A stretch of 43,525 nt of DNA from Escherichia coli (GCF_003334255.1 NZ_QOWU01000046.1); one strand, 5' to 3'; shown: positions 2,525-2,544, counted from the stretch's first letter. The notes: generated by a model not told the origin, from the sequence alone. Numbers and translations are program-made.

Positions 2525-2544
2525 GCAGGTCTTTTCAGACCTGC
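2525..2544 (+). other. Intercistronic stem-loop between sad and glsB (GCAGGTCT-tttc-AGACCTGC), no downstream U-tract
   Basis: Perfect 8-bp inverted repeat with a 4-nt loop read directly from the sequence; followed by GGTCCAGGAG (glsB RBS), not a T-run. Confidence 0.35.

Follow-up and report, generated by a model that had tools for sequence, protein, structure and literature searches.

The stem-loop that lies between sad and glsB in Escherichia coli is an ordinary promoter-proximal inverted repeat placed where transcription begins at a conserved internal glsB-yneG promoter, and it is neither a terminator nor a demonstrated mRNA stabilizer. The inverted repeat is a core part of this internal sigma-70 promoter and not a 3' element of sad. 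As regards its function, the preferred reading, to which a probability of about 40% is assigned, is a role of the dyad at the DNA level at the glsB promoter, most simply as a candidate operator for a regulator.

The sad-glsB junction and its stem-loop

The stretch of DNA under analysis (43,525 nucleotides, hereafter the window) carries the E. coli ptrR/sad/glsB/yneG/dgcF region and is near-identical to K-12 MG1655 1609-1618 kb in reverse orientation, a window position being obtained by subtracting the K-12 coordinate from 1615812. The ptrR (yneJ) gene is located on the minus strand and is followed on the plus strand by sad, glsB, yneG, dgcF and uxaB, in that order. The features on which the present description relies are the following:

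1109-2497, plus strand: sad (yneI), encoding succinate-semialdehyde dehydrogenase (K-12 RefSeq b1525, 1613315-1614703, minus strand)
2495-2497, plus strand: sad stop codon TGA
2494-2499, plus strand: -35-like hexamer CTGACG, from the promoter scan, overlapping the sad stop and separated by an 18-nt spacer from the -10 element
2515-2523, plus strand: extended -10 element TGaTATACT (TG at 2515-16, TATACT at 2518-23), from the promoter scan with the TG flag
2524-2532, plus strand: 5' arm of the stem, CGCAGGTCT, a GC-rich promoter discriminator that is non-transcribed or almost so
2532, plus strand: glsB-yneG transcription start (K-12 1613280) from SMRT-Cappable-seq, the last base of the 5' arm
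2533-2536, plus strand: loop TTTC, an A/T-rich start-site region in all genera
2537-2545, plus strand: 3' arm of the stem, AGACCTGCG, corresponding to +6 to +14 of the glsB-yneG 5' UTR
2551-2555, plus strand: glsB Shine-Dalgarno AGGAG, from the sequence, (A)AGGAG being kept in nearly all loci
2561-3487, plus strand: glsB (yneH), encoding glutaminase 2, with a GTG start at 2561, from the ORF list and RefSeq annotation
3487-3846, plus strand: yneG (DUF4186), co-transcribed with glsB, from the ORF list, annotation and SMRT-Cappable-seq

The first-pass annotation had reported a stem-loop, GCAGGTCT-TTTC-AGACCTGC, at 2525-2544 between sad and glsB, and this structure is present exactly as described. 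Its perfect stem is longer than first noted, the added pair C2524-G2545 bringing it to 9 bp (2524-2532/2537-2545), six of which are G-C pairs. The sad TGA (2495-2497) and G2525 are 27 nt apart, and AGGAG begins 5 nt further downstream of the stem end at 2545, outside the hairpin. When folded as RNA, the 20-mer reaches -12.1 kcal/mol (z -4.7, equaled by 0/200 shuffles) and the 22-mer -14.5 kcal/mol (z -7.4), and the corresponding DNA folds at about -10 kcal/mol on either strand. The absence of a U-tract, also stated in that annotation, is borne out, as the sequence after the stem reads GTCCAGGAG on the plus strand and AGTATATCAG on the minus strand, with no T run on either, and the terminator scan does not contain this hairpin.

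The window holds 19 matches to perfect 8-bp hairpins (~15 loci) compared to 4.6 +/- 2.1 in Markov simulations, and three hairpin loci of at least 9 bp. Because hairpins with 8 perfect pairs are not uncommon here, chance statistics for the stem are not decisive, and the case for the hairpin being more than chance rests on conservation. Rfam yielded 0 matches (cmscan of window 1-6000, E up to 10), and the search for REP-type copies returned one copy of the element in the window, the 35-nt segment spanning the -10 element and hairpin occurring at a median of one place per E. coli genome. The dyad itself is not mentioned in the literature searched.

Some further features of the region were recorded. 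The ORF list contains a longer sad frame (1085-2497). A small 4-bp hairpin, UGGC-AGUC-GCCA at window 2562-2573, spans the glsB GTG start codon in a 131-nt fold, and similar pairing seems possible in other genera, a comparison that is confounded by coding constraints. The position K-12 1612827 on the plus strand (window ~2985, minus strand) is listed as antisense to yneH/glsB in a table of Adams et al. 2021, which was taken to be the bicyclomycin (Rho-inhibition) comparison with its header unchecked; if so, an antisense transcript within glsB and directed towards the hairpin is implied. Finally, the K-12 type of dgcF (window 3958-4905) encodes 315 aa from a TTG start and looks N-terminally truncated in comparison with orthologues of 472-482 aa in strain OkiPb01707 and in other genera.

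An internal promoter for glsB and yneG

The extended -10 element TGaTATACT, overlooked in the first-pass annotation, directly adjoins the 5' arm of the stem. Taken alone, the promoter scan that retrieved it is not significant (4 sites in 6 kb versus 6.1 expected), and the promoter is instead shown by three independent lines of support, these being conservation, a mapped start and polymerase binding in vitro. As to conservation, 80 enterobacterial loci from ~25 genera were recovered with GlsB, and TGnTATACT is found in them at a constant distance from the glsB start. Among the 52 distinct sequences that these enterobacterial loci provide, the hexamer never deviates at its first four positions (T, A, T, A) or at its final T, the TG is at least 90% conserved, and TGnTATACT is almost invariant in 48; the remaining four, from the Klebsiella oxytoca group, carry the consensus TATAAT.

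With respect to the start site, full-length primary transcripts have been sequenced by SMRT-Cappable-seq (Yan et al. 2018, PMC6131387), and Supplementary Data 2 of that study lists the operon b1524|b1523 (glsB-yneG) with its start at 1613280 on the reverse strand of NC_000913.3, an entry marked 'same', which denotes the same operon as in RegulonDB. In this method cDNA is tailed with G, 5' C runs are trimmed and starts are clustered within 5 bp (PMC6131387), and because of this trimming C2531 is equally possible as the start. The reading of the start-site column was verified with the sad entries 1614727 and 1614845, which equal the sad starts of Kim et al. 2012 after a shift of +1976, the difference in bp between the genome versions. 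The mapped start, which comes from one dataset plus RegulonDB agreement, is situated 8-9 nt downstream of the -10 element, and it represents the only glsB start-site cluster reported in SMRT-Cappable-seq. No glsB start is given by Kim et al. 2012, which lists sad and yneF starts, and no yneH entry is present in the Salmonella dRNA-seq supplement.

Genomic SELEX with RpoD holoenzyme and no other factor has furthermore detected binding to the sad-yneH spacer, for which a constitutive yneHG promoter is listed (Shimada et al. 2014, PMC3946193). The hexamers picked in that work are TTTTCA-17-TAGAAA, at window 2532-2537 and 2555-2560 (PMC3946193), which would start transcription within the glsB ORF and conflict with the mapped start, and TGaTATACT fits this start better. 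The properties examined for an extended -10 sigma-70 promoter are found here, namely the hexamer with its TG, a 5' end in the range of 6-9 nt downstream, and activator-free binding by the holoenzyme, and the internal glsB-yneG promoter is already listed in databases. On the other hand, the role of CTGACG as a -35 element is uncertain: most genera retain CCTGACG, but one subgroup has it only 4 nt from the -10 element, where it holds the mcp stop codon.

Relative to a start at 2532, the dyad (2524-2545) extends from about -8 to +14, so that the 5' arm is a GC-rich discriminator of 8-9 nt and the loop plus 3' arm make up the first 14 nt of the glsB-yneG leader, which measures 29-30 nt. Since the start lies inside the 5' arm, the RNA hairpin cannot form in the promoter's own transcript and is possible only in read-through originating at the sad promoter, which PtrR controls. 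For leaders that begin at 2529, 2531 or 2532, the predicted folds are not more stable than those of shuffled sequences (z -0.1 to -0.2). A 5'-terminal stabilizer hairpin of the ompA type was considered as well and rejected, a start at 2531/2532 removing the 5' arm. In rrnB P1 a long GC-rich discriminator is followed by a start 9 nt after the -10 element, and the glsB promoter appears similar to this type, with TGnTATACT, then the 8-nt GC-rich CGCAGGTC, and a start at the 8th or 9th base; unlike the glsB promoter, rRNA promoters are not known to have a complementary downstream arm.

The possibility that the upstream sequence occludes the Shine-Dalgarno was also addressed. In a 66-nt fold CUCU (2512-15) pairs with AGGAG, and the mean predicted probability of the Shine-Dalgarno being unpaired is 0.29 in read-through RNA versus 0.69 in promoter-derived RNA. 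This anti-Shine-Dalgarno model was rejected, as occlusion is equally frequent with shuffled upstream sequence, the fraction of shuffles at or below the observed value being 0.17-0.52 in 7/8 species. As a separate observation on this spacer, five metagenomic GlsB calls (P0005-P0008, P0011) possess an N terminus that is longer by ~24-39 residues (332-347 aa) and are otherwise 100% identical; in these calls the ORF runs through the promoter/hairpin spacer, which is probably over-extension by the gene caller.

Conservation of the promoter and dyad across enterobacteria

The dyad occupies the same position in most of the 80 enterobacterial loci and starts at the first base after the -10 element in every lineage. 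When more distant GlsB relatives were sought, the best 120 matches contained only Enterobacteriaceae, at 83% identity or above. TGnTATACT and the dyad precede glsB in ~25 genera whatever the upstream gene may be, whether sad, mcp or a Hok-like gene plus terminator, and the two are kept in the same register across all these contexts. The sad gene is directly upstream only in Escherichia (63-nt spacer) and Salmonella (72-nt spacer), and in most genera mcp, a methyl-accepting chemotaxis gene, lies between sad and glsB, an arrangement also noted in PMC9068703. In one such locus (L047) mcp (662-2437) encodes 591 aa ending in RFRLPA, and its TGA falls in the CCTGACG motif, the same motif that holds the sad TGA in E. 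coli, which suggests, from the shared motif, that a deletion in the Escherichia lineage may have fused the end of sad to the end of mcp. Remnants of 110-204 nt persist in Citrobacter. In Pseudocitrobacter vendiensis (L080), the interval from sad to the glsB promoter contains a Hok-like toxin ORF at 2170-2325 (NF007290 at E 1.7e-9, which does not reach the curated cut-off) and, at 2399-2417, an intrinsic terminator 44 nt before the -10 element. In the Klebsiella oxytoca group the -10 element has changed to TATAAT without the TG, and the dyad has been lost too. Judged by these comparisons, the element belongs to glsB and not to sad.

Within E. coli, the 35-nt segment comprising the -10 element and hairpin is identical in 5416/5420 records, whereas the whole 63-nt spacer differs in 1725 of the 5420, which places the polymorphisms in the -35/-10 spacer and beside the Shine-Dalgarno. 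A rare rearrangement was encountered in strain OkiPb01707 (NZ_AP042644.1), where window 2541-3919 has been replaced, with the breakpoint 2540/2541 inside the 3' arm; glsB and yneG are gone, ~497 nt (L004 1662-2158) are present instead, and a full-length DgcF of 472 aa directly follows sad. Only ~6 of the 5420 records are without full coverage of the junction. Enterobacteriaceae glsB loci were also found on contigs labeled Caldithrix sp. MAG, Bacillota bacterium MAG and Chryseobacterium sp. 18061 (L005, L008, L037), two of these mislabeled-looking cases having a glsB locus 99-100% identical to that of E. coli, and one GlsB protein (P0118) is labeled Bacillus amyloliquefaciens; contamination or mislabeling is the likely origin of such records.

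Pairing and covariation within the dyad

The 52 distinct sequences were aligned by anchoring on the -10 element and the Shine-Dalgarno, and the alignment is hence independent of structure. Standard pairs occupy 75.9% of pair cells compared to 69.7% in shuffles, and the covariation score is 0.212 versus 0.134 for shuffles (reached by 0/500), with the proviso that related sequences can exceed this control without any structure; controls with a slid register are all lower, at 24-42% paired. Double changes are seen in 5/9 pairs. At pair 7, for instance, the C-G of most genera contrasts with T-A in Escherichia and with a C x A mismatch in Salmonella/Citrobacter; in Silvania confinis pair 4 is T-A for A-U, and in Phytobacter pair 6 is C-G for G-C. 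The inner stem changes between genera with compensation (GGTCT/AGACC, GGCCG/TGGCC, GCC/GGC), the conserved outer blocks are 12 nt apart in the majority of loci and 11 nt apart in some others, and the loop varies freely in length and sequence.

At the same time, pairing is absent from 24% of the pair cells across genera, and the stem is degraded to -3 to -7 kcal/mol in Citrobacter amalonaticus, Enterobacter/Lelliottia and the Klebsiella oxytoca group. The RNAalifold consensus on the natural sequences is weak (-2.3 kcal/mol, with a covariation term of ~0). Mismatches show no strand bias, with 45 cells of the G.U type versus 35 of the A.C type, or 22 versus 34 when the loop-closing pair is left aside, and as G.U is not in excess over A.C there is no specific indication of plus-strand RNA. 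Conservation is higher in the 5' arm than in the 3' arm, the column of C2531 being C in 51/52 and its partner column G in 29/52, a pattern which suggests that the strongest constraint may fall on the discriminator. The dyad is shown to be under some constraint; outside Escherichia its pairing is only loosely kept, with modest covariation.

A proposed DNA-level role at the promoter

According to the preferred reading, the dyad (about -8 to +14) would act as DNA on an otherwise constitutive promoter. A candidate dimeric regulator bound to it would block the binding of RNA polymerase or promoter escape, and glsB-yneG expression would then depend on read-through from the sad promoter for as long as the dyad is occupied. 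A less likely variant at the DNA level is that the self-complementary discriminator and initially transcribed region might affect open-complex stability or escape. This role is favored because the dyad is in fixed register with the -10 element, because it stays with glsB regardless of the upstream context, because the K. oxytoca group has lost TGnTATACT and the dyad jointly, and because the mismatches show no strand bias.

The closest likeness is to operators of the lacO1/trp/tet type that lie over sigma-70 starts: the glsB promoter, otherwise constitutive, likewise has a perfect dyad from about -8 to +14, which is conserved together with the -10 element and invariant within the species. In contrast to those operators, the glsB dyad has no known binding protein, its half-sites are GC-rich around a 4-nt A/T center, its inner positions covary between genera and its arms are unequally conserved. 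Position is the sole operator property that was found, the symmetry overlapping the core promoter, and no cognate DNA-binding protein is reported for the site, the SELEX literature searched not containing yneH as a target. PtrR was rejected as a candidate, its motif TTCACnAATnGAGAA being unlike the dyad and PtrR ChIP-exo containing no glsB site. Several observations weaken the operator reading. The conservation of the two arms is asymmetric, contrary to what is expected of a symmetric operator; the inner compensation and variable spacing of the outer blocks look hairpin-like, as does a GC-rich stem with a 4-nt A/T loop; pairing is missing in the 24% of pair cells mentioned above; and the start derives from one dataset plus RegulonDB agreement.

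Alternative explanations

A somewhat doubtful alternative, which survives better than the others, is the idea of the first-pass annotation that the hairpin works in read-through sad-glsB-yneG (or mcp-glsB) RNA as a non-terminating intercistronic stem-loop protecting a processed end. It might form the 3' end of a sad fragment, as a shield against 3' exonucleases, or the 5' end of a glsB-yneG fragment that RNase E would release by a cut in the AU-rich 2500-2523, and either version would lead to different stabilities for the two parts of the operon. Non-terminating intercistronic stem-loops give differential mRNA stability in operons such as malE-malF, through REP sequences, and papB-papA, and the present element is like these in being a stable hairpin without a U tract between cistrons of a read-through operon. 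Unlike them, it is single-copy and not a REP, no processed end has been mapped to it, it overlaps the start of an internal promoter, and it is tied to glsB and not to the upstream gene.

Transcripts that contain the hairpin do exist, a sad-glsB-yneG read-through primary transcript, b1525|b1524|b1523, being listed from the sad start 1614727 together with a sad-only operon variant from the start 1614845 (SMRT-Cappable-seq, PMC6131387). The operon is also co-induced: qRT-PCR and proteomics have shown that sad, glsB and yneG are induced together under PtrR control, and a YneJ E97A mutant has joint increases of 10- to 100-fold in the Sad, GlsB and YneG proteins. Besides these transcripts, the stabilizer explanation is favored by the high stability of the stem (-14.5 kcal/mol, z -7.4), by compensatory changes in Escherichia, Silvania confinis and Phytobacter, and by a loop that is free to vary in length and sequence. 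It is opposed by the published 3' ends, since the Term-seq tables (Adams et al. 2021), the tables of the TRS study and the SMRT-Cappable-seq termination list (PMC6131387) contain no minus-strand end at K-12 16132xx-16133xx, a negative result that, judged by the refuting condition named in the first-pass annotation, counts against its proposal, with a power limited by the low expression of these genes. Moreover, Pseudocitrobacter retains the element downstream of an intrinsic terminator, its exact register with the -10 element is always maintained and would be needless for an independent RNA element, G.U mismatches are not in excess over A.C, the RNAalifold consensus is weak and Rfam gives no match. 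Overall, the proposed stabilizer or processing element found no positive support, and neither did the suggestion that the hairpin sets the expression of sad versus glsB-yneG. The element travels with glsB and not with sad, and the internal promoter alone already explains differential expression of glsB-yneG relative to sad.

It is rather unlikely that selection has not acted on the pairing itself, with the 5' arm kept as a long GC-rich discriminator, the 3' arm as part of the leader, and the complementarity representing an ancestral palindrome in decay across most genera and perfect in Escherichia by coincidence. Column composition alone accounts for the 69.7% pairing of the shuffles, kinship alone can beat this control without structure, and the RNAalifold covariation term of ~0, the far better conservation of the 5' arm and the badly degraded stems of Citrobacter amalonaticus, Enterobacter/Lelliottia and the Klebsiella oxytoca group all agree with such an absence of selection on pairing. 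However, the 9/9 dyad of Escherichia was reached via a C-to-T change that repaired a mismatch, independent double changes preserve pairs in Silvania and Phytobacter, the slid registers are paired to a much lower degree (24-42%), and within E. coli the dyad is invariant, whereas adjacent bases of the spacer are variable.

It is quite improbable that the choice of start site sets the 5' structure of the transcript, in the manner of pyrC/pyrD or of a 5'-terminal stabilizer, such that starts at G2528/G2529 would carry a short 5'-terminal hairpin altering stability or translation and starts at 2531/2532 would not. In pyrC/pyrD the position of the start decides whether a 5' hairpin forms, and the glsB promoter is alike in having its start inside the 5' arm of a promoter-proximal hairpin; the homopolymeric A or T run that comes after it in all genera and the inner pairs, which covary most, are also compatible with this explanation. 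The differences are that the Shine-Dalgarno is not sequestered, being 5 nt downstream of the hairpin, and that most of the 5' arm is upstream of any plausible start. In addition, a start at 2529 leaves 4 weak pairs with a fold no better than shuffles (z -0.09), the outer four pairs are never in such RNA and yet are the best conserved, and SMRT-Cappable-seq gives a single start-site cluster.

Termination or attenuation of sad transcripts at the hairpin, whether intrinsic or factor-assisted, which might be suspected from a GC-rich hairpin 27 nt past the sad stop and from the sad-only variant starting at 1614845 in SMRT-Cappable-seq, is already largely refuted and next to negligible, given that there is no U tract on either strand, no entry in the terminator scan and no mapped 3' end at the site, and that full-length read-through transcripts exist and the three proteins are co-induced; the first-pass annotation was thus right in regarding a terminator as the less likely option.

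Implications for glutaminase B expression

In recent papers, sad, glsB and yneG are handled as one operon under PtrR control. For annotation, the practical consequence is that the 63-nt spacer holds a second, conserved and constitutive promoter that includes the stem-loop, and the spacer promoter and its dyad matter for studies of glsB expression, for the design of reporters and for sad deletions. More tentatively, and with less confidence than the DNA-level role in general, the dyad can be viewed as a putative operator that may gate a constitutive glsB-yneG(-dgcF) promoter across Enterobacteriaceae, or alternatively as the origin of two mRNA isoforms. In the latter version, a start inside the stem would result in a hairpin-bearing read-through RNA and a hairpin-less primary RNA with different fates. 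If a regulator does bind the dyad, this would constitute a second control of glutaminase B, an enzyme whose physiological role is poorly defined, and if not, the dyad would be an ordinary feature of the promoter. In the regulator-gated case, glutaminase B would be subject to two inputs, one being read-through from sad under PtrR control and the other a separate signal acting at the internal promoter.
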